A stretch of DNA of 64,000 nucleotides from Alphaproteobacteria bacterium (lineage in GTDB: Bacteria; Pseudomonadota; Alphaproteobacteria; Bin95), in NCBI GenBank assembly GCA_965205265.1, contig CBDBGH010000003.1, forward strand, positions 3,616,001 to 3,680,000. The letters are read 5' to 3'. Shown here in pieces: positions 30,607-42,679 of the stretch. The translations under genes and the position numbers were made by a program. Position 1 is the first letter of the stretch; each line of letters begins with the position of its first letter. Below the pieces are notes generated by a model. It did no database searches, had not been told where the DNA came from, and saw only the letters and a program-made list of their open reading frames with translations.

Positions 30607-30726
30607 CTCGTCCCGCGATGCCGGCCGGCTGTCTTCCCTGTGCATGAAGCGTCTCCCGGATTGGAACATTCAGGCAACATATAGCCTGTCGATGCGCGTC
30701 GGCCAAGCATGCGGCCGGGCTGACGG
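30607..30726. repeat. ~120-bp direct repeat, copy 2, with LexA-like box at 30664-30678
   Basis: Aligns with 27676-27795; carries only the first ~12 codons of the small gene. Confidence 0.85.
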
Positions 30727-30839
30727 GCCCGGAGCCGGACGCCGTCAGGCATGCAAGCCTGTTGCAGGCGCGCCTGAAACAAGGTTCATGGGGCGGCGCC
30801 GAACGACACCTGCCGCTGACAGGGACAATCGGGCCAGAA

Positions 30840-31549
30840 TGTGCGGTCGATTCACCCAGCGCCTCTCATGGGCGGAACTGCACGAGCTGATGAACCTCAT
30901 CGGCCCGCCCCGCAACCTGGAGCCCCGCTACAACGTCGCTCCGGGCCAGGATGTCGCCATTGTCCGCGCCGCGGAACACGGATCGCAGTCGGGCGACGGC
31001 CGCCGTCTCTCCATGCTGCGCTGGGGGTTGGTACCCGCCTGGTCGAAGGATCCCTCCATCGGCAACAGGCTCATCAATGCGCGGTCCGAGACGGTCGCGG
31101 AGAAGCCGGCCTTCCGCGCCGCATACCGGCGCCGGCGCTGCCTGGTCCCGGCCGACGGCTTCTACGAATGGCAGCACCGGGGCGCGACCCGCCAGCCCTG
31201 GCTGTTCGGCCTCCGCGGTGGCGCGCCCTTCGCGTTCGCCGGCCTCTGGGAGCGCTGGACCGGATCGGAGGGTCCGGGGCCGACAGGTTCGCTCTTCGGC
31301 CCGGAACCCGGCTGGCCGGTTGAGACGTTCACCATCCTCACCACCGCCGCCAACGAGACCGTGGCGCAAGTCCACGGCCGCATGCCGGTCATCCTGCCCC
31401 CGGACGCCTGGGGTGCTTGGCTTGCGGGCGAGGACATTCCGCTCGGCCCCTGTCCCGCGGATGAAATGCACGCGCATCCGGTGAGCACGCTGGTCAACAA
31501 GCCCGCCAATGACGATCCACGCTGCGTCGAGCCGGTCTCCCTCTGCTGA
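30840..31549 (+). CDS. SOS response-associated peptidase (SRAP/YedK/HMCES family)
   Basis: MCGRF N-terminus, RYNVAPGQ, INARSET, RCLVPADGFYEW, HGRMPVIL. Confidence 0.93.
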
Positions 31550-32194: not shown

Positions 32195-32825
32195 GGTGAA
32201 GCTCCAGAGTGTTCGGAACCCGCGTCAACGGTTCCTGCCGGTGGCGTGTCGAGTGCGGCTTCCGGCGATGCTCCTTCGGGAAGGGCATGCAGGCAAGGAC
32301 ATCGTGCCCGGTCTCGTCCAGGAAGGTAGCGAACCTGGGCGCCCCGGCCCTGAGCCGGACCGCGACCTGTCGCCACTGGACGCCAGCGCATTTCTTCTCT
32401 GTGTTCCTCTTTTTTTCTCAATGAGGGGTTGCAATGGGAAAGAAAATCTAACATAACGGGAAGCGGACGGCGCAAGAGGAGTCAGCTCTTGCACCGCCCT
32501 GACCAAGGATCTTCTGGAGAAAGATCGCATGGCTGCTCACGAACTTAGCACGGCCCCGACGCCGGCTGTCAGCCCATACGACCGTCCCTGGCAACCGGCG
32601 CGAACCGGGATTCCGCCCGGCATTTGCGCCGCCTCCCGGCGCGCGCCCTCCGGCCGCGCCCGGCGGTCATTGCGCCCGGAGACAGTCGGGGCTCACGCCG
32701 CCCGCCCGCCCGCGGCGCATTCGCTGAATCCCTGAGTCCCCGGCGCCGTCCGGCGTCCGGCGATGACCGGCAACGTCCTGCGCTTCACAGGCGCAGGCGA
32801 CAGGCTGTGGAACTGTGAGGAGACC

Positions 32826-33704
32826 ATGACCGACAGCGACTTCACCCTGCCGGAGGCCGCACCCGCCGTCCGGCTCGGGCCGAACCCCGACAACGGCCGC
32901 GACCTGGTGGTCGGCGACGTCCATGGCCATTTCGCCACGCTGCGCCATGCGCTGGCCGAACTGGAGGTCGGCGCGGGCGACCGGCTGTTCTCGCTCGGCG
33001 ACCTGGTCGACCGCGGCCCCGACTGCTTCCAGGCAAAGGCCTGGATCGAGGGTTCGGCCCTCCCGGCTCTGGGGCCGGGACAGGCCCCGGCGCGGTTCGA
33101 CCTTGTCGTCCGCGGCGATCACGAGCAGCTGATGCTCGACGCGCTGGGCCCGCAGGTCTCGGCGGCATACAGGCCGCTCTGGCCGGCCGACTGGAACCTC
33201 TGGCGTCTCAATGGCGGAGACTGGTGGGAGGAGGGGGACCCGGTCGACCCCGCATCGGGGGGAGTCTGCCCCGGACTGCGATCCGGGAGGACAGGCGATG
33301 CCCGGTCCTGGGCCGTGGCGCTCGCGGGGCTGCCCTTCGCGGCCCGCATCGAGACGTCGCACGGCCCGGTGGGCCTCGTGCATGCCTGCCCGGTCCACCG
33401 CTCATGGGAGGCGCTGGAAGAGGCGCTCCGGCAGGACGGGCCCGACGGCCGCCGCACGCGCACGCGCGCGCTCTGGAGCCGCGTCCATCACCGGACCCGC
33501 CGGCCGGAGACCGACGGGCCGGTGGCGGGCGTGCGCGCCGTCCTGACCGGCCACACGCCCATGCCCGGGCCCGTCTGGCGCGCGAACGTCCTCGATATCG
33601 ACACCGGTATCGTCCGCCAGGGCATGCGCCGCCTCACTGTCGCACGTATCGACACGAAGGAGATCGGGACATGGACCTTCGACCGGGTGCCTGGCGAGAC
33701 GTAA
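32826..33704 (+). CDS. PphA/lambda-type Ser/Thr metallophosphoesterase (uninterrupted copy)
   Basis: GDVHG, GDLVDRG, RGDHE (Asn replaced by Asp), GLVHA, TGHTP, DIDTG; RBS GAGGAG. Confidence 0.88.
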   Translation: MTDSDFTLPEAAPAVRLGPNPDNGRDLVVGDVHGHFATLRHALAELEVGAGDRLFSLGDLVDRGPDCFQAKAWIEGSALPALGPGQAPARFDLVVRGDHEQLMLDALGPQVSAAYRPLWPADWNLWRLNGGDWWEEGDPVDPASGGVCPGLRSGRTGDARSWAVALAGLPFAARIETSHGPVGLVHACPVHRSWEALEEALRQDGPDGRRTRTRALWSRVHHRTRRPETDGPVAGVRAVLTGHTPMPGPVWRANVLDIDTGIVRQGMRRLTVARIDTKEIGTWTFDRVPGET

Positions 33705-33910: not shown

Positions 33911-34957
33911 TCAGCAGCAATTGTCGTTGGGATGGTCTTGGTCGTCGTCTTCCCAATCGGCTTCTTCCTTGCCAGCAGCTCGACGCCGCACACGTCCAGC
34001 GAACTCTCGGTAGTGGATTTTCCCGTCTGCGTAGTCGGCCAGGAGGTCTTGGTAATTGTCGAAGCGGGTACGTGCATCTGGAAGCTGCTCGGGCAAGGTC
34101 GTGCCGATGAAACTCAAGAGGCGGGCGTCAGGCGCGTCGCCGACTCGGATGTCGTTGAAGCCGAGCGAGTCTTGGCGCATTGCGCGGTCAGCCAGACCCC
34201 TATCGGTGACGTGATAGAGCTGGTTGAGGGTTTGATAGAGAATTACGCCGCACTCGCCGAGGACATCGAAGGTAGCGCGCGGAAAGCGGCGAGCGACGAG
34301 GATCGGAACGCAGTTCAGCGCGACACACTTTTCAAGTAGCCGCTTGACTTCGTCCGTATCGGGGTAAATCCACCTACGGAAGCTCTTTGCCTCGACACCG
34401 GCAAACCCCGCTGTGCGATGCAGATAGAGGAAGTCGAGCAGACGTCCCTCGGGTATTGCGCGGCCCCCGATGTGGGCGGGTGGTTCCTCCTTGCGGTAGC
34501 GGCTCTTTCGTTCTGCGACGGACGGGTCGAAATCGGGAAATCGGCCGAAGTAGGGAGCATTGGATTGGGCACCAAGTGCGCGGAAGATGGCAAGTTCCAG
34601 GCACTGGCCCCGACGATCCGAAACGGCTGGTTTAGAAAGTGCACGGAGAACGCGCCTCAGCGTGGCGAGGCGTGCTTGTACGCCTGTTTCCGGGGCATCG
34701 GGAAGGTGGAACCACGACGGATCGTCGTTGATGCCGACAATCTCCACTAGGTCGCCATCGCGAACGAGGATCTTGCGGGCCATGCCCAATATATGAGGCT
34801 CCAGCGGCTGGGCGCCCGTGTCGCAGATCTCGTGTTCGAGCATCCGCGCTGTCATGACGACTCGACGGGAGAGGACGTCGCGCAGCCGAGCCTTGGCGAG
34901 CGCGAGGTCGGCCGGATCCGACTCCGGGTGCGATGACGTTGGGGGGCGACGCGCCAT
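33911..34957 (-). CDS. PD-(D/E)xK restriction-endonuclease-like protein
   Basis: G..LELAIF helix, GRLLDFL...GVEAKSFRRWIYP; RBS GAGGGAGG. Confidence 0.6.
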   Translation of the reverse strand: MARRPPTSSHPESDPADLALAKARLRDVLSRRVVMTARMLEHEICDTGAQPLEPHILGMARKILVRDGDLVEIVGINDDPSWFHLPDAPETGVQARLATLRRVLRALSKPAVSDRRGQCLELAIFRALGAQSNAPYFGRFPDFDPSVAERKSRYRKEEPPAHIGGRAIPEGRLLDFLYLHRTAGFAGVEAKSFRRWIYPDTDEVKRLLEKCVALNCVPILVARRFPRATFDVLGECGVILYQTLNQLYHVTDRGLADRAMRQDSLGFNDIRVGDAPDARLLSFIGTTLPEQLPDARTRFDNYQDLLADYADGKIHYREFAGRVRRRAAGKEEADWEDDDQDHPNDNCC

Positions 34958-35042
34958 GGAATTGGAGCCTCCCTCAGGATAGTGAGTCAACACAGCGATT
35001 ATATCTTAATTGAATGGTCTTCCAATCACACTGTGCAGTTAC

Positions 35043-35048
35043 TATAAT
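35043..35048 (+). promoter_or_regulatory. sigma70 -10 box upstream of the E1/E2/JAB operon
   Basis: TATAAT in an AT-rich divergent intergenic region. Confidence 0.45.
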
Positions 35049-35076
35049 TGGATACTCTCAACTGAAGGATGGGACC

Positions 35077-35271
35077 ATGGCACGAAAACCTACGATCGAG
35101 GAGCTGGAAAGCATCCTGGACGACGAGGAGGACATCCCGATCGAGATACTCCCCAACGGCGAGATTCGGGCGCTTGGAGGTAGCGACGCGGCGGAGCGGA
35201 ATTTCCAGAAGCCGCTGACGATGCGTGAGGACCTCGGCGGCGAATACGGACGGCGAGGTAACCAAGCATGA
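35077..35271 (+). CDS. 64-aa acidic peptide, candidate non-canonical protein modifier/substrate
   Basis: MARKPTIEELESILDDEED...RALGG...REDLGGEYGRRGNQA; GAAGGA upstream; ATGA overlap with the E2 gene. Confidence 0.7.
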   Translation: MARKPTIEELESILDDEEDIPIEILPNGEIRALGGSDAAERNFQKPLTMREDLGGEYGRRGNQA

Positions 35272-35642
35272 ATCTGGCGCGAATCCGCGAAGACATCGCC
35301 GCTGCGCAACGGTATTTCCAATATGTTGAGGGCCGGGCGACGCCGGAAGGTGGCTTGATGGCGCTCATCGCGCTGCAGACCAGCGGGCGCCTCTACACCC
35401 TCGGCGTGTCGTTTCCAGATTCGTACCCGAACGCGATGCCCGAGGTACATGTCAGGAAACCGTCGCTGTCATACTCACCGCACCAGTACCTGCACGACCG
35501 GATCTGCTACCTCCACCCGCACATGTGGAACCCGGGTCGTCACAACCTGACCTTCGTCATACAGCGCGCCGCGAAATGGCTCGGCAAGTATGAGGTGTAC
35601 CGGAAGACGGGGAAGTGGCCGGGGGCAGGTTTGGACCATTGA
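35268..35642 (+). CDS. prokaryotic E2/UBC-like protein
   Basis: FPDSYPNAMPEV...SPHQY...RICYL...WNP pattern matches UBC fold YP..PP/HPN/ICL/W.P. Confidence 0.8.
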   Translation: MNLARIREDIAAAQRYFQYVEGRATPEGGLMALIALQTSGRLYTLGVSFPDSYPNAMPEVHVRKPSLSYSPHQYLHDRICYLHPHMWNPGRHNLTFVIQRAAKWLGKYEVYRKTGKWPGAGLDH

Positions 35643-35646
35643 GACG

Positions 35647-36246
35647 ATGAGCAACACTCAACGCCAGGCGACTGTGAAGCTGATCGAGGGGCAGGCATCT
35701 GGCCCGCGGTCCAACGATACGCACATCGAGTTCAAGCCCCTGCCGATGATGGCGCTGCGCAGCAGCCCAGGGGAGGTGCTCGACGAAGTGTCGAAGGAGG
35801 GGGCCGCCTACCTGATCGAACGCAACGGGCAGCAGAAAGCGTGTCTGGTTCCCATATCGTGCTTTCTGCCGGATATCCAGCGATCACGCGTAACGGCGGA
35901 ACTCGACAGACTCGAGGACTCCGTGGAGAAGTACCGCGTGGCAATCAGCGCCGAGCGGGAGATGCAGTTCCTTTTCCGCGAATTCAGCGGCGACACGCGA
36001 TTGGAGGTGGCGGTGACGCTGCCCCATGGCTACCCCAACAAGGCGCCCGTGGTGACGGCTGAGCCGATCGAGGAAGGCTGTCCGCACCGGTGGCCAGACG
36101 GGACGTTATGCCTCTATGGCGCAGTGGCGGTGTGGAACCCGGGTAGGCACGACGTGATGCACGCAGTCGCGCTCTTCCGGCGGTGGATCCAGCACTACAC
36201 CGTATGGCGGCAGACAACCGAGTGGCCGCGGGAGGGGTTGGAATGA
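35647..36246 (+). CDS. Phd/YefM-like domain fused to an E2/UBC-like domain
   Basis: N-terminal LRSSPGEVLDEV...YLIERNGQQKACLVP; C-terminal LPHGYPNKAPVV...CPHRWPDGTLCLY...WNPGRH. Confidence 0.75.
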   Translation: MSNTQRQATVKLIEGQASGPRSNDTHIEFKPLPMMALRSSPGEVLDEVSKEGAAYLIERNGQQKACLVPISCFLPDIQRSRVTAELDRLEDSVEKYRVAISAEREMQFLFREFSGDTRLEVAVTLPHGYPNKAPVVTAEPIEEGCPHRWPDGTLCLYGAVAVWNPGRHDVMHAVALFRRWIQHYTVWRQTTEWPREGLE

Positions 36247-37085
36247 TGACTGACGGTCTTTTTGCGAGGGTTGAGCCTCTGTTCGACGTCGACGCATTCC
36301 GGGACCAGTGGGTGCTGATCGCCGGTTGCGGGTCGGGCGGCGGCCAAGTAGCGCTGCAGCTGGTCATGTCGGGAGTCAGAAAGTTCATCCTGGTGGACAT
36401 GGACGAGGTCGCGGTCGAGAACATCATCAGACATGTGTGCGGCCTCCGTTATGTGGGCTGGCGCAAGACCGCGGCGCTCGCCGACGTCCTCAAGGATCGC
36501 AACCCGGAGGTCGAGATCAGGTCGTTCAACGAGGATGTTCTCGAATGGCCGGGCTTGGAAGACGAGGTTGAGCGGGCGAGCGTGGTCGTGATCGGAACGG
36601 ACAACGAGCCGAGCCGCTACCGGCTGAACGAAGTATGCGTGAAAACGGCGACGCCGTTCACGGTCGGGCGCGTGTTCACCCGCGGCATCGGCGGCGAAGC
36701 CTACGCATACCGGCATGGAAGCACCGGATGTCTGGCCTGCCTGGAGGGGGTTCTGGAACGCACCCGGTTCCGGGAAGGGGTGCGCGAGATCGACCTCGCA
36801 ACGGAGGAAGAGCGCCAAAAGATGTACGACCTTGAAATCGAGGAGATCAAGGACTCGCCAGGCTTGTCGGTGGACATCGGCTTCATTGCCGCGTTTCACA
36901 CGCGGCTCACGCTGGACGCACTCGGTGAAATGGCCGACGAGCGGCCGAAGTTCATGACGCCGCTCGAGGAGAACTACCTCGTGTGGGGCAACCGGACTGT
37001 CCACCCGTTCTCGAAGAATTTCCAACTGCAGCGGATGTCCTTGCAGCCGCAGAAAGGCTGCAATGTCTGCGGAGGGCAGGTATGA
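36243..37085 (+). CDS. ThiF/E1-like adenylyltransferase
   Basis: IAGCGSGG, VDMDEV..ENIIRH, GTDN..SR, CLAC and C-terminal CNVC zinc ligands. Confidence 0.92.
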   Translation: MMTDGLFARVEPLFDVDAFRDQWVLIAGCGSGGGQVALQLVMSGVRKFILVDMDEVAVENIIRHVCGLRYVGWRKTAALADVLKDRNPEVEIRSFNEDVLEWPGLEDEVERASVVVIGTDNEPSRYRLNEVCVKTATPFTVGRVFTRGIGGEAYAYRHGSTGCLACLEGVLERTRFREGVREIDLATEEERQKMYDLEIEEIKDSPGLSVDIGFIAAFHTRLTLDALGEMADERPKFMTPLEENYLVWGNRTVHPFSKNFQLQRMSLQPQKGCNVCGGQV

Positions 37086-37996
37086 ACGCGATGAGAGACG
37101 TACGTTCGGTCAGGGTCGAAATTGCCGCGCGGGCCTTGGAGGCCGTTTTCGAGGAGTGCGACCGCTACGACAGCGACGAGACGGGCGGGCGGATGGTGGG
37201 GCACTTCTCGCTGGAGCGGAACACGCTGGTGGTGAGGGCGCGTGGAGTCATAGAACCGGGGCCTAACGCCAAGCGGACCAGCGCCAGCTTCTTCCAGGAC
37301 GGTGACTACCAGACCGAGATCTTCCGGCGGATCGAAGCCAAGGACCCGACGGTCGAGCACCTGGGCAACTGGCACACGCATCATGTGAACGGGTATCCGA
37401 ACCTGAGCGGAGGCGACGTGGCAACCTATCGCCGCATCGTGAACCACGAGCTGCACAACCTGGACTTCTTCTACGCGTTGCTGGTGACGGCGCGCCGTGA
37501 GGGACGGTCGGGACTCGGCCGTTACACGGTGCGGCACTACGTTCTGTTCCGCGGAGACGACGGGGTCTATGAGGTAGATCCGGGGAATGTCCGGATAACG
37601 GACGAGGCGACGATCTGGCCGAAAGACGCAGCCGGGCCGGGCGACGGGCTCGAAACCGACCCTCAACGAATGAAGCAGGCTGCTGCCATCCGCGCGCACG
37701 ACCTGCAGGTCCTCAAGGTCATGTACCCTTCGCTGAGTCCGCGACAGTCGGCGCGGTCGGAGATGTTCTTCTGGAAGGGGCCGTTGCCGCTGATCGATGG
37801 TACTGAAGCGGGGCTGCGGATCCTGGAAGTGGAAGACGATGAGGGGCTTGCCTACTACCTGAGGGTGAGCCCGGCCTCGGCGGAGGCGAGGGAGCTGTAC
37901 GAGACGCGCTTCCGAAGCGCGAGCGAGGCAGTGCGCACGCTGGAGGTGAGCTTGGACCGGGCGATCTACCGGTCTGCCGCTGGATCGGAGGGCTGA
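37082..37996 (+). CDS. JAB/MPN metalloprotease with a C-terminal extra domain
   Basis: ETGG, LGNWHTHH...NLSGGD (E..HxH..S..D JAMM motif). Confidence 0.88.
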   Translation: MNAMRDVRSVRVEIAARALEAVFEECDRYDSDETGGRMVGHFSLERNTLVVRARGVIEPGPNAKRTSASFFQDGDYQTEIFRRIEAKDPTVEHLGNWHTHHVNGYPNLSGGDVATYRRIVNHELHNLDFFYALLVTARREGRSGLGRYTVRHYVLFRGDDGVYEVDPGNVRITDEATIWPKDAAGPGDGLETDPQRMKQAAAIRAHDLQVLKVMYPSLSPRQSARSEMFFWKGPLPLIDGTEAGLRILEVEDDEGLAYYLRVSPASAEARELYETRFRSASEAVRTLEVSLDRAIYRSAAGSEG

Positions 37997-38826
37997 TGAC
38001 GATGGAGATATTGACGCTCTATGCGGGTCAGGGGAATTTCGCGGTTGTCCGCCATGGTGGGCAGGCAATCGTGGTGGATACCCGGCGCCCGGCCGAATGT
38101 TCGGACGACATCGCGTCGAAGGTGAGCCGATTTCTGAGGGGGCGGGAACTGGTGGGCATCGTGTTGACGGGGTTCGACGACGATCACGCGGACCCGGACG
38201 GACTCGACTGGCTGCTGGAGGATTATGCGGCGGCCTGGGTGATGTATCCCAAGTACTACAAGGATACGGAAAACACGCAGCGGGTGTTCAACGTAATCCG
38301 CAAGCATGAACGACGGCGCGAGAACACGCACAATCCACTTGAGCGTGTGTCGGTTCGCCTCGACCGGCTAGACTCACGGTACCTCGACGAGCTGTCCGAT
38401 GAGTTCGACCTGGAGCTCTTTTCGCCGCACATCGAGGACATGGACAACTCGAACAACTGCAGCATCGTACTGAAGATCGAAGGAGTCGGACCAGACGGAT
38501 TCGGATACCTCGTGACCGGCGATACCGAGAACCCGCGCTGGGACAGGATTGTGGCTCTGTTCGACGATGCCTTGGCGGCGGACGTCATGGCTGCACCGCA
38601 TCACGGGTCCAAGAATGCGGCGCATCCGGGCATGGCCCTGGCGGTTTCGCCCGACACGGTGCTGATCAGCGCCGGCATCGACAATCAGTACGGACACCCG
38701 GACGCGAAGGCGGTGGCGCTCTATTCGCGCGTCGCCGAGCATGTGTTCCAGACCAACATCCGGACAGGGATTTCGTGGCTCACGAGGCGCGTGGGTAGTG
38801 ATTTCCCGACGCAAAGGGTGGCGTAA
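37996..38826 (+). CDS. ComEC/Rec2-like metallo-beta-lactamase-fold hydrolase
   Basis: GQG, IVVD, TGFDDDH, NNCSIV, LVTGD, APHHGS, ISAG..NQYGHP; TGATG overlap. Confidence 0.85.
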   Translation: MTMEILTLYAGQGNFAVVRHGGQAIVVDTRRPAECSDDIASKVSRFLRGRELVGIVLTGFDDDHADPDGLDWLLEDYAAAWVMYPKYYKDTENTQRVFNVIRKHERRRENTHNPLERVSVRLDRLDSRYLDELSDEFDLELFSPHIEDMDNSNNCSIVLKIEGVGPDGFGYLVTGDTENPRWDRIVALFDDALAADVMAAPHHGSKNAAHPGMALAVSPDTVLISAGIDNQYGHPDAKAVALYSRVAEHVFQTNIRTGISWLTRRVGSDFPTQRVA

Positions 38827-39093
38827 CGAAGGGTCGGAGGATGCCTGGACCATTGGTCCCAGAGCGAACTTCAAGAACGCATGCCATTCCGATTTGACTG
38901 CAGTGGGCGGAACGCGAGGCGCGTCACCTGCTCCACGAAGGCGAGGGCAAGTGGGACTCGCACCGACCCCCGACGACAGCATCCTGCTTGCGACGATCTC
39001 GAAAGAGACGCGAATGCGTGGGTGGTGGGCGTAATGACGATCATCCGCAAAGGTGGGTGTGTCGGCTTCTCTACGCGGGCTTGGTGAGCAGCG

Positions 39094-40236
39094 ATGAAGG
39101 TCGCGCTCGCACTCTCCGGGGGCGGCGTCCGAGCGGCCGTGTTCCACTGTGGCGTGCTGCAGCGCTTGGCGCTGGACGGCTTGTTGGAATCGACGGCGTT
39201 TGTGTCGACGGTCTCAGGGGGCAGTCTGGTCGTGGGGTTAATCCTCTGCCAGAACGGCCATCAATGGCCGGGCAGCAAGGAGTTTCTCGAAGCCGTGCTG
39301 CCGAGCGTTAGGACTCGGCTCACGACGGCGACCCTGCAATGGTCCTATGCGTGGAGGTCGGTCGTGCTCCCCTGGAGACTTGCCCGCGGGCGTGCGCACG
39401 TTCTCGCGGGCCTGCTTGAAGCCCAATGGGGAATCTGCGGGACGATGCAGGACGCACCTGAGACACCCCGTTGGATGGTGAATGCGACCTGTTACGAAAC
39501 AGGGCGGAACTGGCGGTTCAGCCAGCGACGAATGGGCGACTACGCTACGAACTATGTGTTGAAGCCGACGACGCCAATCGCCGATGCGATCGCCGCTTCG
39601 GCCGCCGTGCCGGGGGCAATCGGACCGCTTGCGATCCGGTCGGCCGACTACGATTGGCACCGCTACGAGAGTGGACAGCTTGTGGCGAGCTCGACGCCTG
39701 CAAAGCGGTACGCGTTGTGGGACGGTGGAGTGTACGACAACTTGGGCGTGGAATCACTGTTCAAACCCGGCGGCGGATTCCGTGACGGCTTCGACTTCCT
39801 GGTGGTGAGCGACGCATCGGCACCGCTGTCCCTGGACATTGGGAAGGTCAAGCGAATGTTCATGCCATGGCGGCGAGCGCTTCGTCTGGTGGACGTGGCA
39901 ACGGAGCAGGTGCGGGGGTTGCGGGCGCGGTCGCTGATCGCCGAGTTTCAGCGAGCCCCGGCAGCGGGCGTTTATGTAAGGATTGGCAACACCGTCGAGA
40001 CGGTTTACGGCGCCGTACGCCGAGAGCCTCCCGCCGGGGAGCATCTCGGGGAGATCGACGTCGCCCGCGCGGAGCGTTTCAAGACGACTCTCCGACGACT
40101 TAGCGGGGAAGAGTTCGAACTCTTGAGGCGACATGGATTCGAGGTGGCGAACGCGACGTTGGCAACGCGGCAGCCCGAGCGGTTTTCGTACAGGGTGTTG
40201 TCCGGCGCGCCGCTTCCACGCCGATCAGCACCATAA
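39094..40236 (+). CDS. patatin-like phospholipase
   Basis: LALSGGGVRA, STVSGGS nucleophile elbow, ASAAVPG, DGGVYDNLG. Confidence 0.9.
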   Translation: MKVALALSGGGVRAAVFHCGVLQRLALDGLLESTAFVSTVSGGSLVVGLILCQNGHQWPGSKEFLEAVLPSVRTRLTTATLQWSYAWRSVVLPWRLARGRAHVLAGLLEAQWGICGTMQDAPETPRWMVNATCYETGRNWRFSQRRMGDYATNYVLKPTTPIADAIAASAAVPGAIGPLAIRSADYDWHRYESGQLVASSTPAKRYALWDGGVYDNLGVESLFKPGGGFRDGFDFLVVSDASAPLSLDIGKVKRMFMPWRRALRLVDVATEQVRGLRARSLIAEFQRAPAAGVYVRIGNTVETVYGAVRREPPAGEHLGEIDVARAERFKTTLRRLSGEEFELLRRHGFEVANATLATRQPERFSYRVLSGAPLPRRSAP

Positions 40237-40334: not shown

Positions 40335-42218
40335 TCAGAGCTTGAGCGCGCGCCCCTTGCGGCGGACCTTCTTCGGGGTGGGAATCTTCTCGCCCGGCCA
40401 GAGGATGTCGGCATAGGCGAGCGGGCGGTCGGCGAAGCCGAGCCGCATGGCGGGCGTGGCGCCGTCCACGCCGGTGTGGATGAAGTTGTTCACCGCCCGG
40501 AAGACGTCGAGATATTTCTGCACCATGTCCGGCCTGTAGGGCGCATAGCCGTACCAGACCTGCTGCCAGCGCCCGCTCGCCGTGTCGATCGGGCGCTCCA
40601 GGGCCGAGAGGAACCGCCGGGTCAGCTGGAAGACATTGTCCACCTGCGCGACCGAGGCCGCGAGATAGAGCCGGGCCCTGTCGTCGAGCTCCATATCCGG
40701 GCTCTCCGTGATCCAGCGGACCTCCTTGCCGGGCTCCTGGGCGGTCGGCACCGGGTGCCGCAGCCAGCCGTCCTCGGGCAGGCCGTCCGCCCGCAGGGCG
40801 GTCCGGATCATCTCGAAGCCGAGCTCCTCCTCCGTCATGCCCTCAAGATGTCGAGCCCGGGCGAAGGCCCGCATCTGCCTCTCGGTCTCGCGGTAGATGC
40901 GGTTGCGCTCGTCGATCGGGCAATCCTTGGCGTAGCGCACCAGGAAGCCCTGCGCGCGACCCTCGCAGACCTGCTCCTGGAAGGCGCACATGAAGGACGC
41001 GATGGTCGAGAGATGCTGGTCCATCGACAGCTGGAGCCGCTCGACGCCGGCGCCCTTCAGGATCTCGCGCAGCACGAACATGTGCCCGAGCGTCCGGTAG
41101 CCGGTCTTCACCAGCATGCCGGAGCGCAGCATGGTGTCGCGCAGCGGCCCCTGGCCCGGCACGATCTCCATCTCCGCCACGTCGGCATAGGCATTGGCCG
41201 CCCGGAAAGCGTCCTGGATGTCGCCGACGGCCTGTTCGGCCGCCCGGGCGCCCATGCGGCGCTGGCCGGTGCGCCCGCTGCGCATCTCGTCGCCGGCGAG
41301 CCAGAAGCGGGCATATCTGCGGAACGCCTCCTTGCGGGTCAGGTCGCCCAGTTCGGCCGACTCCTGGTTGACGTCGAACGGGTCGAAGCGCGGATCGTGG
41401 TTCACGTCCAGTTCGAGGATGAAGCGCGAGCCGGCATCGACGCTGCAGCAGGAGGTCACCTCGACCGTGCGGCGCTGGACCTTGCGCGGCCAGTTGACCA
41501 TGAGCGACTGCGAGTCGAGGGCGATGTCCATCTCGGCCGGCAGGCGCCGCGCGCCGGTCAGGAACGCCCGTGTGACGGCGCCGTTCATCTCCCGGCAGCG
41601 CCGGTGGATGAAGTCGAAGACCGTGTAGTAGTCCTTGCAGCTGTTGAGCCCGGCCCCTTCCACCGTGCGGCGCATCGGGGACTTGTTGGCGATTCGAGAG
41701 AGCACATCGGCGGCGAGCGACTGGTTCTTCGCGTGGATCCTGGGAGCCTTGCGCGAGACGAGGATGCGCCGCAGGCAGGCCTTGCACTGGTAGTAACGGT
41801 TCTCCGGCGTCTTGTAGTAGCCGCGCCTCCAATAGCGATCCCGATGCTCGCCGACCGAGAGGCCGAAATTGGCGCAGCCCTCAGTCTTGCAGGCGAAGTG
41901 GTGCTCCAGCGGCCGGGCATAGTCGGAGATGCGCTCGATCTCCTCGGCGATAGCCGCGTTCGAGCGGATGGCGCCCTTGCCCCTGCAGACCTTGCACTCG
42001 ATGGCGGGTTCCTGGCCCTTGGCGGTCGAGTTCAGCTTGTACCGGAGATCGCGGTCCCGGCTCGGCCCGGTCTTGCCGCGCTTCGTGCGCGCCGGCACGC
42101 CGAAATTGGCGCAGCCCGGCGTGCGGCAGTGGTTGACCTGAACCGGGAACGGTTCTCCGAGGAGCCTGGCATGGGCGATTTCGGGGACCCGGAGCGAGCG
42201 GCGGGGCGTTGAAGCCAT
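40335..42218 (-). CDS. large zinc-finger transposase-like protein (IS1/IS1595-like insertion element protein)
   Basis: Repeated C..C motifs (CRTPGCANFG, CKVC, CKTEGCANFG, CKAC), IALDSQ, SMDQ, VDNVFQ..RR, TPAMRLG. Confidence 0.65.
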   Translation of the reverse strand: MASTPRRSLRVPEIAHARLLGEPFPVQVNHCRTPGCANFGVPARTKRGKTGPSRDRDLRYKLNSTAKGQEPAIECKVCRGKGAIRSNAAIAEEIERISDYARPLEHHFACKTEGCANFGLSVGEHRDRYWRRGYYKTPENRYYQCKACLRRILVSRKAPRIHAKNQSLAADVLSRIANKSPMRRTVEGAGLNSCKDYYTVFDFIHRRCREMNGAVTRAFLTGARRLPAEMDIALDSQSLMVNWPRKVQRRTVEVTSCCSVDAGSRFILELDVNHDPRFDPFDVNQESAELGDLTRKEAFRRYARFWLAGDEMRSGRTGQRRMGARAAEQAVGDIQDAFRAANAYADVAEMEIVPGQGPLRDTMLRSGMLVKTGYRTLGHMFVLREILKGAGVERLQLSMDQHLSTIASFMCAFQEQVCEGRAQGFLVRYAKDCPIDERNRIYRETERQMRAFARARHLEGMTEEELGFEMIRTALRADGLPEDGWLRHPVPTAQEPGKEVRWITESPDMELDDRARLYLAASVAQVDNVFQLTRRFLSALERPIDTASGRWQQVWYGYAPYRPDMVQKYLDVFRAVNNFIHTGVDGATPAMRLGFADRPLAYADILWPGEKIPTPKKVRRKGRALKL

Positions 42219-42679
42219 GGCTCTGCCTCTTGTAATGAGGCGGTCCATCGTAACGCCGGAGGGGCTTCCTGTCAAGCCTGAATTAGAACATTGGCAAGTA
42301 AAAACAATGTGTTATCCGGGTTTCCTATCGACCCCCAGAGAATTCAAAGGAACTTTTGTGTCAGTTTATGACTGCTAAAATATGCCATATTATCAATGCA
42401 TTATATCGTATTTTGACACAGAATTTTCATCGGCTATCTCTCCGCCATAGCGGATGCTCCTTTTGTGGGAACCTGCTGTGAACTCGATACTCAACGTATT
42501 GATTTTCCGCCATTAACTGCCGCCGTTCAGCACCGCAACATGTTGCTTCGGAACGATTTCACGGGGTCAACGGCGGTGTCGAACAACATGGAGCGAGGCG
42601 CGCAAGCGCCGGATCGCGCCGGCCCGGGGTTTCGGTCGTGGCGCAGCGTCATGACGTGAACGCGAACCCGGTCTTCAGT

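Follow-up and report, generated by a model that had tools for sequence, protein, structure and literature searches.

We describe a cassette of six translationally coupled open reading frames (ORFs) on a 64,000-nucleotide stretch of DNA, referred to here as the window, from an Alphaproteobacteria bacterium of the Bin95 lineage (assembly GCA_965205265.1, contig CBDBGH010000003.1, positions 3,616,001 to 3,680,000 of the forward strand). The cassette lies at 35077-38826 of the window on the plus strand and encodes, in order, a short peptide (pep), a small E2-like protein (E2a), a second E2-like protein with an antitoxin-type N-terminus (Phd-E2), an adenylating enzyme (E1), a JAB peptidase and a metallo-beta-lactamase-fold protein (MBL). 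We found this gene order conserved across phyla, and the peptide most likely takes the place of the missing ubiquitin-like protein (Ubl).

Gene content and conservation of the cassette

The first gene, pep (35077..35271), encodes a 64-aa peptide made up of a 57-residue conserved core ending in LGGEY and a 7-residue variable tail, a candidate transferable tag or E1 substrate; an AAGGA sequence is located 6 nt ahead of its ATG. It shares an ATGA overlap with E2a (35268..35642), which encodes a minimal UBC-like E2 of 124 aa. After a 4-bp gap follows Phd-E2 (35647..36246), whose product joins a Phd/YefM-type N-terminus (residues ~29-67) to a second E2-fold domain (~96-190). Two further ATGA overlaps lead to E1 (36243..37085), encoding a 280-aa ThiF/MoeB/MccB-like adenylating enzyme, and then to JAB-RWD (37082..37996; JAB for short), encoding a JAMM/MPN+ metallopeptidase (1-175) with a Cys-less RWD/UEV-like domain (192-304). 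The JAB stop codon overlaps the next start by 1 nt (TGATG), and the gene that begins there, MBL (37996..38826), encodes a 276-aa ComEC-type protein and is the fixed last gene of the cassette. An earlier interpretation made from the letters alone, the sequence-only reading, had described the six genes as coupled by ATGA or TGATG overlaps or a 4-bp gap, and re-reading the ORFs and junctions gave the same arrangement.

We searched for relatives of the JAB protein, which resulted in 1154 relatives (E ≤ 1e-3) among 5741 candidates, and scanned one genome per species, yielding 61 loci; a scan of neighbouring genes covered 55 of them. Using tblastn with the window proteins, we found that 52 of the 61 loci hold the complete set of six genes in unchanged order, with MBL following JAB in every one of the 52. 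Six of the remaining nine loci run into a contig end, and the other three are decayed. The 61 loci span at least 10 phyla, according to record titles and tree labels, and the retention of the six-gene order in 52 of them goes far beyond chance. A survey of gene neighbourhoods had been proposed with the sequence-only reading, and it revealed conserved synteny. The cassette is also borne, together with a patatin gene, on a plasmid of the cultured Mesorhizobium sp. AR10, where its PGAP labels are generic (in order: hypothetical, ubiquitin-conjugating enzyme E2, Phd/YefM antitoxin, ThiF adenylyltransferase, hypothetical, hypothetical, patatin).

We scanned the cassette, the patatin gene and their neighbours (30.6-42.3 kb) with Pfam, PADLOC and NCBIfam and found no cyclase or Ubl family match on any ORF, in agreement with the earlier view of a distinct conjugation-type operon in which neither a cyclase nor a beta-grasp Ubl can be recognised. 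The sole cyclase-model signal was a weak one (1.1e-4), between the E2a fold and the tail of one fused cyclase model. The cassette is without a name in Pfam, PADLOC 2.0.0 and NCBIfam 20. A literature search returned papers on 6A-MBL, CBASS, Bil and Bub; in the main texts that it covered, neither the Phd-E2 fusion nor the six-gene order nor the LGGEY peptide was described, and an earlier bioinformatic mention is possible.

Both E2-like proteins matched PADLOC E2 models (E2a at 4.2e-11, Phd-E2 at 4.9e-8), and the Pfam RWD and UQ_con matches of E2a fell below cut-off. The E2a residues His72, Cys80 and W87-N-P89 are conserved in at least 97% of 60 sequences. Phd-E2 is paralogous to E2a, with ~24-38% identity in tblastn cross-hits. 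Its N-terminal domain is recognised as PF02604 (PhdYeFM) in all 48 of 48 members (best E 6.6e-9), the window protein itself scoring 22.5 bits, under the 29.8 cut-off. The AlphaFold2 (AF2) model of Phd-E2 (predicted local distance difference test score, pLDDT, 84.8) matched BubB best (Z 10.2), followed by UFC1 (10.1) and Tsg101 UEV (10.0), and all 50 of the matches listed are UBC, UEV or RWD folds. The sequence-only description of two Cys-containing E2-like proteins, one of them with a Phd-type first part, is upheld by the PADLOC E2 models and by PF02604 in the family. The position of Cys155 in Phd-E2 is variable, being Ser in one clade and Gly in locus L010; because the Cys is replaced in some members, Phd-E2 may often be non-catalytic.

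JAB matched Prok-JAB at 26.1 bits (cut-off 25) and carries an invariant E...HxH...S..D zinc motif (E33, H98, H100, S109 and D112). In its AF2 model (pLDDT 88.3), the N-terminal MPN domain is close to an Rpn11 homolog (Z 17.2) and to Cap3 (Z 15.8), and all matches of the C-terminal domain (192-304) are RWD, UEV or E2 folds (VPS37A, RWD, Tsg101 and E2; Z 6.8-7.7). These moderate but consistent Z values identify the C-terminus, at the level of the model, as a third, Cys-less E2-fold module. The call of a JAB protease was confirmed in its JAMM motif and its MPN fold; the RWD/UEV-like C-terminal domain is new to that description.

The E1 protein matched Pfam ThiF (2.3e-28), and its GCGSGG loop, Asp120 and two CxxC pairs are invariant across 50 sequences. 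MBL matched Lactamase_B at 23.4 bits (cut-off 22.7) and ComEC_Rec2 at 2.3e-22, below the cut-off of that model; its TGDTE and HHG residues are invariant. Both identifications, a ThiF-type E1 and a ComEC-type MBL, had been made from the translations and were borne out.

Upstream of the cassette, loci of different phyla (L015-L061) carry a palindrome, TGCRATYGCA, which often occurs twice; it is placed after a TTGACA-like box and before the pep ribosome-binding site, mostly 26-49 nt ahead of the pep start codon. With at most 1 mismatch it occurred in 20 of 56 upstream regions compared to 116 of 7203 controls (1.6%), a contrast that is inflated as the motif was defined post hoc. The palindrome half-sites, at a spacing of -2 to 10, occurred in 22 of 56 upstream regions and 165 of 7203 controls, counted on the same data that defined the motif. 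The window's own copy is weak (at least 2 mismatches). The intergenic region of the window holds a promoter-like stretch read by eye (35020..35052; TTCCAA, 17 nt, TATAAT), overlapped by an imperfect inverted repeat (TGCAGT...ATTGGA); in a promoter and terminator scan, counts were no higher than in shuffles and the only promoter reported was on the opposite strand. As the cassette has no domain of DNA-binding type other than Phd/YefM, autorepression can reasonably be guessed at, and TGCRATYGCA is a possible operator for this domain.

The PF02604 domain and a palindrome that in many loci would suit a dimeric DNA binder are reminiscent of Phd/YefM antitoxins. The cassette differs from these in the fusion of the domain to an E2 fold and in the lack of a toxin gene of Doc or YoeB type; no Doc-, YoeB- or RelE-type family was found on any ORF in the region with Pfam, PADLOC or NCBIfam. 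The Phd-E2 fusion links toxin-antitoxin parts to ubiquitin-like enzymes, and the literature that we searched holds no report of it.

A conserved peptide and its predicted docking on E1

A pep homolog is present upstream of E2a in 56 of the 61 loci. Invariant in all 56 sequences are ILPNGE, P46, T48, E51, L53, G54, G55, E56 and Y57, giving an end of the form P.T..E.LGGEY. What follows Y57 is unconserved: the tail has 0 residues in 18 sequences, 2-12 in 37 and 102 in one. The peptide had no Pfam or PHROG match, and its profile gave 0 matches against PDB sequences at E values up to 10. At 90% identity the family falls into at least 2273 clusters, none of them with a name, and at 50% identity into 584 representatives; among the best 150 of the 584, EY follows GG in 128. 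Rare variants (LGSEY, LEAEY and LCGEY) lose a Gly and keep EY, and thus the conserved end is EY at least as much as GG. Taking these 584 peptide-family representatives together with the 61 species-level genomes, the span of at least 10 phyla and the one cultured plasmid, the cassette is widespread.

The protein collection also contains fused, duplicated and extended forms of the peptide (P0278, P0124, P0389, P0384 and P0380). One protein is a natural in-frame pep-E2a fusion with a two-residue linker, another is a partial tandem duplication with two LGGEY units, and several cores carry extensions of 65-150 residues after LGGEY. Given the fusion and the long extensions, cleavage after the core would be needed. 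A layout of this kind, with disposable sequence behind a conserved core, is that of ubiquitin-like precursors.

For comparison of E1 with known enzymes, we ran its profile against solved sequences. MccB scored highest (72 bits, 4e-19), followed by MoeB (68.5), ThiF (66.6), PaaA (43.7) and Cap2 (39). The alignment to MccB starts only at MccB residue 111-114, which means that the N-terminal peptide-clamp region is absent. We then predicted complexes of two E1 chains, pep and ATP in three runs, accompanied by three controls. Docking of pep on E1 scored ipSAE 0.72, 0.63 and 0.54 (median 0.63), compared to 0.01 for the best control; in calibration, 116 of 157 solved complexes and 2 of 215 mismatched pairs scored this high. 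Contacts agreed between runs by at least 54%, with a partner pLDDT of 48-64.

The predicted interface comprises residues 19, 21-28, 33, 44 and 46-58 of pep and residues 120-122, 142-152, 170-177, 206, 242-247, 255-256, 261-271 and 278 of E1. In the model, pep 21-28 pairs with E1 261-271, and pep 46-58 runs along the 142-152 loop to 120-122, a segment that includes the Mg-binding Asp120. Thus, in this controlled prediction, the C-terminal end of pep would meet the E1 adenylation site. The docked geometry is like that of solved E1-Ubl complexes, and part of the score may stem from that likeness.

The sequence-only reading had noted that no beta-grasp Ubl was to be seen, and no Ubl family matched any ORF, although the fold of the 57-residue core in the complex model is uncertain (pLDDT 48-64); it had left the role of the Ubl empty. 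The 64-aa peptide is the best candidate for this role because of its invariant LGGEY end, its variable tail and its predicted docking into E1, and we consider it most likely to be the missing Ubl. In such an arrangement the cassette would resemble Bil and Bub, which likewise have separate E1, E2 and JAB genes and a small dedicated modifier whose precursor is trimmed by a peptidase. A further likeness to Bub is that BubB is the best fold match of the E2 domain of Phd-E2. A natural Ubl-E2 pre-protein is reported for Bub (PMC11601596), comparable to the one natural pep-E2a fusion. The modifiers of Bil and Bub are beta-grasp Ubls of one to three domains (PMC11601603), whereas that of the cassette is a 57-residue peptide without a Ubl signature, and an MBL is added. 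E2a keeps its Cys (at least 97%), whereas Bub works via Ser oxyesters, and Ser is found only in one Phd-E2 clade. No DUF6527, CEHH or multidomain E1 was found in the cassette.

Phage-borne copies and the proposed role

Lone copies of two cassette genes were identified on viral contigs. Five IMG/VR contigs (L069-L073) carry a lone JAB gene whose product, of 163-208 aa, is 43-51% identical to the window JAB, keeps all family motifs and is without the RWD domain; no other cassette gene was found within 6 kb of any of the five. The lone gene of L071 is flanked by the large terminase and a portal/adaptor gene, and that of L072 comes just before the large terminase. A tblastn search with JAB against INPHARED phages gave no match at 1e-10. 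We built a maximum-likelihood tree with 65 rows: 58 cassette JABs of at least 280 aa (the shorter rows of 60 sequences were dropped), the five phage JABs and the JAB domains of two 6A-MBL fusions, with a midpoint root for drawing only. The five phage JABs cluster together (support 88/75) beside the cassette JAB of L042 (88/89), inside the cassette radiation, and the 6A-MBL domains lie across a very long branch (100/100).

Relatives of pep were found in 18 viral loci, and 14 of these (L074-L087; 12 distinct sequences) have the complete ILPNGE...LGGEY core with a short tail. None of the complete viral peptides ends right at Tyr, and several have N-terminal extensions; no E1, E2, JAB or MBL was found within 5 kb of the 14. 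In L077 and L080 the pep gene starts where the portal gene ends, while in L081, L086 and L087 it sits elsewhere in the head module, in L087 after the portal gene with one small ORF between. Head or packaging genes are present within 2.6 kb of the viral pep in 7 of the 16 loci scanned, two duplicate loci having been dropped. Another viral contig encodes a 75-aa ORF (L091:4821-5048) that consists of a Phd/YefM-like domain and the last 15 residues of pep. Its first part is 38% identical to Phd-E2 29-70 and its pep part, ending ...LGGEYAQ, is 80% identical; from this composition it looks like a chimeric mimic.

The occurrence of lone erasers and lone tag mimics in phages suggests counter-defence. 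The sequence-only reading had inferred a probably anti-phage system; the phage-borne copies give indirect support to a role of the cassette in phage-host conflict, while the peptide may also have a function of its own in phages. The lone phage JAB and the lone phage peptide are ready candidates for counter-defence study.

Putting these results together, we favour, with a probability of about 0.5, the reading that the cassette is a peptide-tag conjugation system in which E1, E2 and JAB work with an MBL hydrolase and an exchangeable membrane-attacking module in phage defence; defence against phages is the most likely biological role. From gene order, conservation, motifs and folds as observed, and from docking as predicted, we infer processing, transfer, targets and defence as follows. 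A short peptide that is not of the beta-grasp type would stand in for ubiquitin in a self-contained six-gene cassette. It would be made as a precursor, with a core ending in LGGEY and 0-12 variable residues after it; JAB would trim this tail and could later reverse conjugation. E1 would bind the peptide by beta-strand pairing (pep 21-28 with E1 261-271) and thread pep 46-58 to the adenylation site at Asp120, where a carboxylate would be activated, most probably that of the C-terminal Tyr57 and less probably Gly55 (after a GG|EY cut) or the side chain of Glu56.

The activated peptide would then be handed to Cys80 of E2a, with Phd-E2 and the RWD-like domain of JAB as non-catalytic or auxiliary E2-fold partners. 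The Phd/YefM domain would probably dimerise and may recognise a palindromic operator ahead of the operon. Conjugation would then place the peptide on a target, be it a phage protein or an effector of the system itself. As the fixed output enzyme, the ComEC-type MBL would be followed by the product of an exchangeable gene, a membrane-attacking module that here is a patatin lipase.

Several points weigh against this reading. The evidence from defence context is anecdotal and is not a statistical island test. On the enzymatic side, the HxHxDH motif of the window MBL is degenerate and hydrolase activity is therefore not assured; the 142-152 loop of E1 has no obvious catalytic Cys through which the peptide would pass to E2; and the closest solved relative of E1 by sequence, MccB, is a peptide-modifying and not a conjugating enzyme. 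The docking is a prediction in which the peptide fold is uncertain (pLDDT 48-64) and a carboxylate facing ATP is not resolved in the output. A C-terminal Tyr is unusual for E1 chemistry. Replacement of the C-terminal Gly by Ser, Val, Arg or Trp abolished type II CBASS conjugation (PMC10097602). Finally, the pep family is larger than the JAB family (at least 2273 compared to 1154 clusters), and many phage pep copies are without E1 or E2, so the peptide may have a function independent of the cassette.

A fuller version of the tag reading is more tentative, and we would sooner bet against it than for it. Here the cassette would be the first E1-E2 system with a ~57-residue non-beta-grasp tag activated at an invariant GGEY end, most likely at the C-terminal Tyr. 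The work would be divided among three E2 folds: a small catalytic E2, a Phd-linked one doubling as repressor of the operon, and the RWD domain of JAB. Phages would hold two counter-weapons, a captured orphan JAB to take off or destroy the tag and a mimic peptide to jam E1 or E2. If true, the phage JAB and mimic peptide would mirror the viral deubiquitinases and viral ubiquitins of eukaryotes. More generally, if the peptide is the tag, an E1/E2 cascade needs no beta-grasp modifier, which bears on the origin of ubiquitin signalling, and the cassette would offer a protein tag that is very small, can be encoded genetically and comes with a writer and an eraser of its own. The bacterial relatives of ubiquitination (type II CBASS, Bil, Bub and 6A-MBL) form a fast-moving field, in which new architectures have revealed new chemistry.

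Among the alternatives, one that we consider unlikely follows the logic of CBASS or 6A-MBL: the MBL would be conjugated via its own C-terminus, and the peptide would only help, inhibit or regulate E1, in the first case as an adaptor. For type II CBASS and related MBL pathways, two reports describe an enzyme encoded in the operon itself as the conjugated substrate (10.1101/2024.11.21.623953; PMC10097602). The cassette would share with type II CBASS an E1/E2/JAB chemistry on a substrate that is apparently not beta-grasp, as well as an exchangeable downstream slot that includes patatin and membrane proteins. CBASS E1-E2 and JAB models of PADLOC were the top matches in the defence library (2.7e-27 for E1 with the E1-E2 models), and the JAB fold is near Cap3. 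Among solved sequences Cap2 scored only 39 bits with E1, behind MccB, MoeB and ThiF, and JAB scored only 20.4 bits with the NCBIfam Cap3 model NF050170 (cut-off 200). The cassette is without a CD-NTase or any other cyclase, and its E1 and E2 are separate genes. Whereas the CBASS substrate is an enzyme with a C-terminal Gly or Ala (PMC10097602), the putative substrate here is a dedicated peptide of 57 residues with Tyr as its last.

The C-terminus of the cassette MBL is variable in both sequence and length across 57 sequences, and for this lack of conservation we rejected it as an E1 substrate; the MBL is thus unlikely to be what is conjugated. The peptide C-terminus, in contrast, is invariant and is predicted at the E1 active site. 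PRAG or GRG ends followed by 0-2 residues are seen instead in 6 of 9 6A-MBL-type MBL enzymes encoded next to the cassette, as expected for enzymes conjugated via their own C-terminus.

6A-MBL itself is among the closest known arrangements. Iyer, Burroughs and Aravind (2006) described it as a two-gene operon in which an E2-E1-JAB triple-module polypeptide stands next to an MBL (row 6a; PMC1779556), and according to a review it was Van den Berg et al. 2024 who showed that it acts against phages in Pseudomonas aeruginosa (PMC13276650). Like 6A-MBL, the cassette has E2, E1 and JAB beside an MBL-fold gene, and neither a cyclase nor a recognisable beta-grasp Ubl. Unlike 6A-MBL, the window has four separate ORFs for these functions, a Phd-fused second E2, an RWD-like domain on JAB and a conserved peptide, and the cassette MBL is without the C-terminal PRAG/GRG. 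The 6A-MBL models (NCBIfam NF058523/NF058524) gave 46.8 bits for E1 and 48.6 for JAB (cut-off 320) and 33 bits for MBL (cut-off 220), and no 6A-MBL above cut-off was found elsewhere in the window genome.

In 9 of the 55 loci of the neighbour scan (L004-L008, L011, L012, L031 and L057), a genuine 6A-MBL-type MBL gene lies downstream of the cassette MBL, at a distance of ~180 bp or less in eight and 1.5 kb in L031. Two of these proteins were scanned with NCBIfam and scored 283-289 bits. In L005, L006 and L057 the neighbour scan, which reached 3.5 kb, also picked up an E2-E1-JAB fusion; two of the three were scored, at 572-644 bits. We therefore rejected a "split 6A-MBL" on the sub-cut-off scores, on this co-occurrence and on the lack of 6A-MBL above cut-off in the window genome; a 6A-MBL MBL gene beside the cassette, together with the differing MBL C-termini, points to paralogous neighbours and not to one split system. 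The sequence-only reading had cautioned that MBL-linked E1/E2/JAB operons were already noted bioinformatically, and the cassette can be set apart from these by the scores (33-49 bits compared to 220-320) and by the co-occurrence in 9 of 55 loci.

Similarly improbable is a modification of the peptide of the MccB or PaaA kind, in which Tyr or Glu56 would become a peptidyl-nucleotide, a cyclised residue or a signal, and MBL and the effectors would process or sense the product. MccB and PaaA act on peptides, and the cassette resembles both microcin C7 (MccA/MccB) and PaaP/PaaA in having a minimal ThiF-type E1 whose substrate would be the terminus of a short ribosomal peptide. Among solved sequences MccB matches E1 best and PaaA is listed, the peptide is short with an invariant end, and Glu56 followed by a tail of any length fits a side-chain chemistry that needs no trimming. 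However, MoeB and ThiF score almost as high as MccB, and the MccB N-terminal region that forms the peptide clamp is unmatched in the cassette E1. The substrate of MccB is a heptapeptide ending in Asn, whereas the peptide here has 57 residues and ends in Tyr. The His and Cys of E2a, the second E2 and JAB, which are kept in 52 of the 61 loci, would have no role in known MccB or PaaA pathways, and the cassette holds no exporter or immunity gene.

A little less probable again is a function outside defence, with pep and JAB serving phage morphogenesis or mobile elements and the cassette acting as an addiction or regulatory module, for example one based on Phd with MBL or patatin as toxin. The positions of the lone genes fit such a role, with pep after the portal gene (L077, L080) or in the head module (L081, L086, L087) and JAB beside the terminase (L071, L072), as do the Phd/YefM domain in 48 of 48 members and the placement of the window copy by an IS (insertion sequence)-like ORF and a NinI-like phosphatase. 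Yet the phage contigs have no E1, E2 or MBL within 5-6 kb while their JAB and peptide keep all cassette motifs, and the retention of these motifs without the partners fits mimicry or counter-defence better than an independent role in assembly. No Doc- or YoeB-type toxin partner was found, and the neighbours of the cassette include known or candidate defence genes (6A-MBL and PDC-M48B).

A sulfur carrier is very improbable: JAB would expose GG on the peptide and E1 would thiocarboxylate it, as for ThiS, MoaD, CysO or QbsE, and E1 is indeed ThiF/MoeB-like, GG is near the peptide end and a JAB is present (for QbsE, a JAB removes two residues after GG), but sulfur transfer has no use for two E2-fold proteins with a conserved catalytic Cys, the cassette holds no rhodanese, cysteine desulfurase or cofactor-biosynthesis gene, EY is as conserved as GG, and the distribution is sporadic and accessory.

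Variable slot, neighbouring genes and genomic setting

After the cassette, separated by a 267-bp gap, the window carries a patatin-like phospholipase gene (39094..40236, plus strand). Its product matched Pfam PF01734 at 65.8 bits (7.6e-18; cut-off 27.7) and contains GGGVR, VSGGS and DGG in translation, in keeping with a Gly-rich loop, a nucleophile Ser and a DGG Asp; it had no PADLOC (CapV-type) match. A patatin homolog is present in 31 of the 61 loci, within 400 bp of the cassette in 21, and it is the gene directly after MBL in 19 of 55. In seven of the nine loci with a 6A-MBL-type MBL, a patatin homolog lies ~3.5-4.1 kb past the cassette. The sequence-only reading had proposed patatin as an effector; the family assignment was confirmed, but patatin is one of several alternatives in a variable downstream slot and not a fixed component.

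Two other families occupy this slot. A family of 230-275 aa with 3-4 hydrophobic segments follows MBL in six loci (L009, L016, L018, L034, L056 and L059). Another, of 219-236 aa, is present in five (L028, L030, L039, L047 and L057, in the last upstream of the cassette), and the four members that were checked also have 3-4 hydrophobic segments. Over both families, eight members were checked and all have 3-4 hydrophobic 19-residue segments; four members that were scanned had no match in Pfam, NCBIfam or PADLOC. Exchangeable effectors of this kind are well known from CBASS-type operons, and by analogy exchangeable lipase and membrane modules would be typical of abortive-infection systems. MBLs of PDC-M48B type, a PADLOC candidate, were found within a few kb in six loci (L040, L048, L057, L059, L015 and L023); three that were scanned scored 185-305 bits, making this a third kind of MBL near the cassette.

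On the other side of the cassette, an ORF of 360 aa (348-360 aa across its family) is transcribed divergently (33911..34993, minus strand). It had been read as a nuclease belonging to the system. What stood of this claim is a D...ExK pattern at the level of motifs: all 15 aligned homologs keep D175, E189 and K191, 3 of the 15 matched NERD weakly (best E 0.013), and Atlas leads pointed to NERD/Mrr at 0.81-0.83. The window ORF itself had no family match, and a PDB sequence search gave chance-level rows only. A PD-(D/E)xK-type nuclease, possibly NERD-like, is plausible on these residues. We rejected the ORF as a core part, as it accompanies the cassette in only 3 of the 61 loci (L001-L003), all closest relatives, out of 59 homologs in all; it is a clade-specific neighbour.

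We compared the region with 20 relatives, 12 of them from the same genus, and found 33.9-40.1 kb unmatched in all 20, while seven of the same-genus genomes carry the adjoining downstream Liv transporter genes at 86-91% identity. The cassette block is accessory in the window genome. The lower GC content that had been noted for the block is present as a dip (0.60-0.64 over 34-40 kb, with 0.70-0.73 at 32.5-34 kb and 0.67-0.69 at 40-42 kb), but it is modest and other flanking stretches are equally low. A tRNA scan of 20-50 kb found none, and hence gave no lead to an att site.

Beyond patatin, a 646-aa ORF (40335..42275, minus strand) has Cys-rich N-terminal motifs and no family match. In same-genus relatives it is IS-like, occurring in multiple copies per genome at 82-90% identity, and it is probably an unclassified transposase or IS at the island edge. 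Upstream of the cassette are a gene for a NinI-like Ser/Thr phosphatase (32763..33704, plus strand; phrog_246, 4.4e-39), the only match of the window proteins to PHROGs, and one for an SRAP/YedK protein (30644..31549, plus strand; 1.9e-70). Both have further copies in the window's own genome or in relatives, which suggests phage-derived or mobile DNA.

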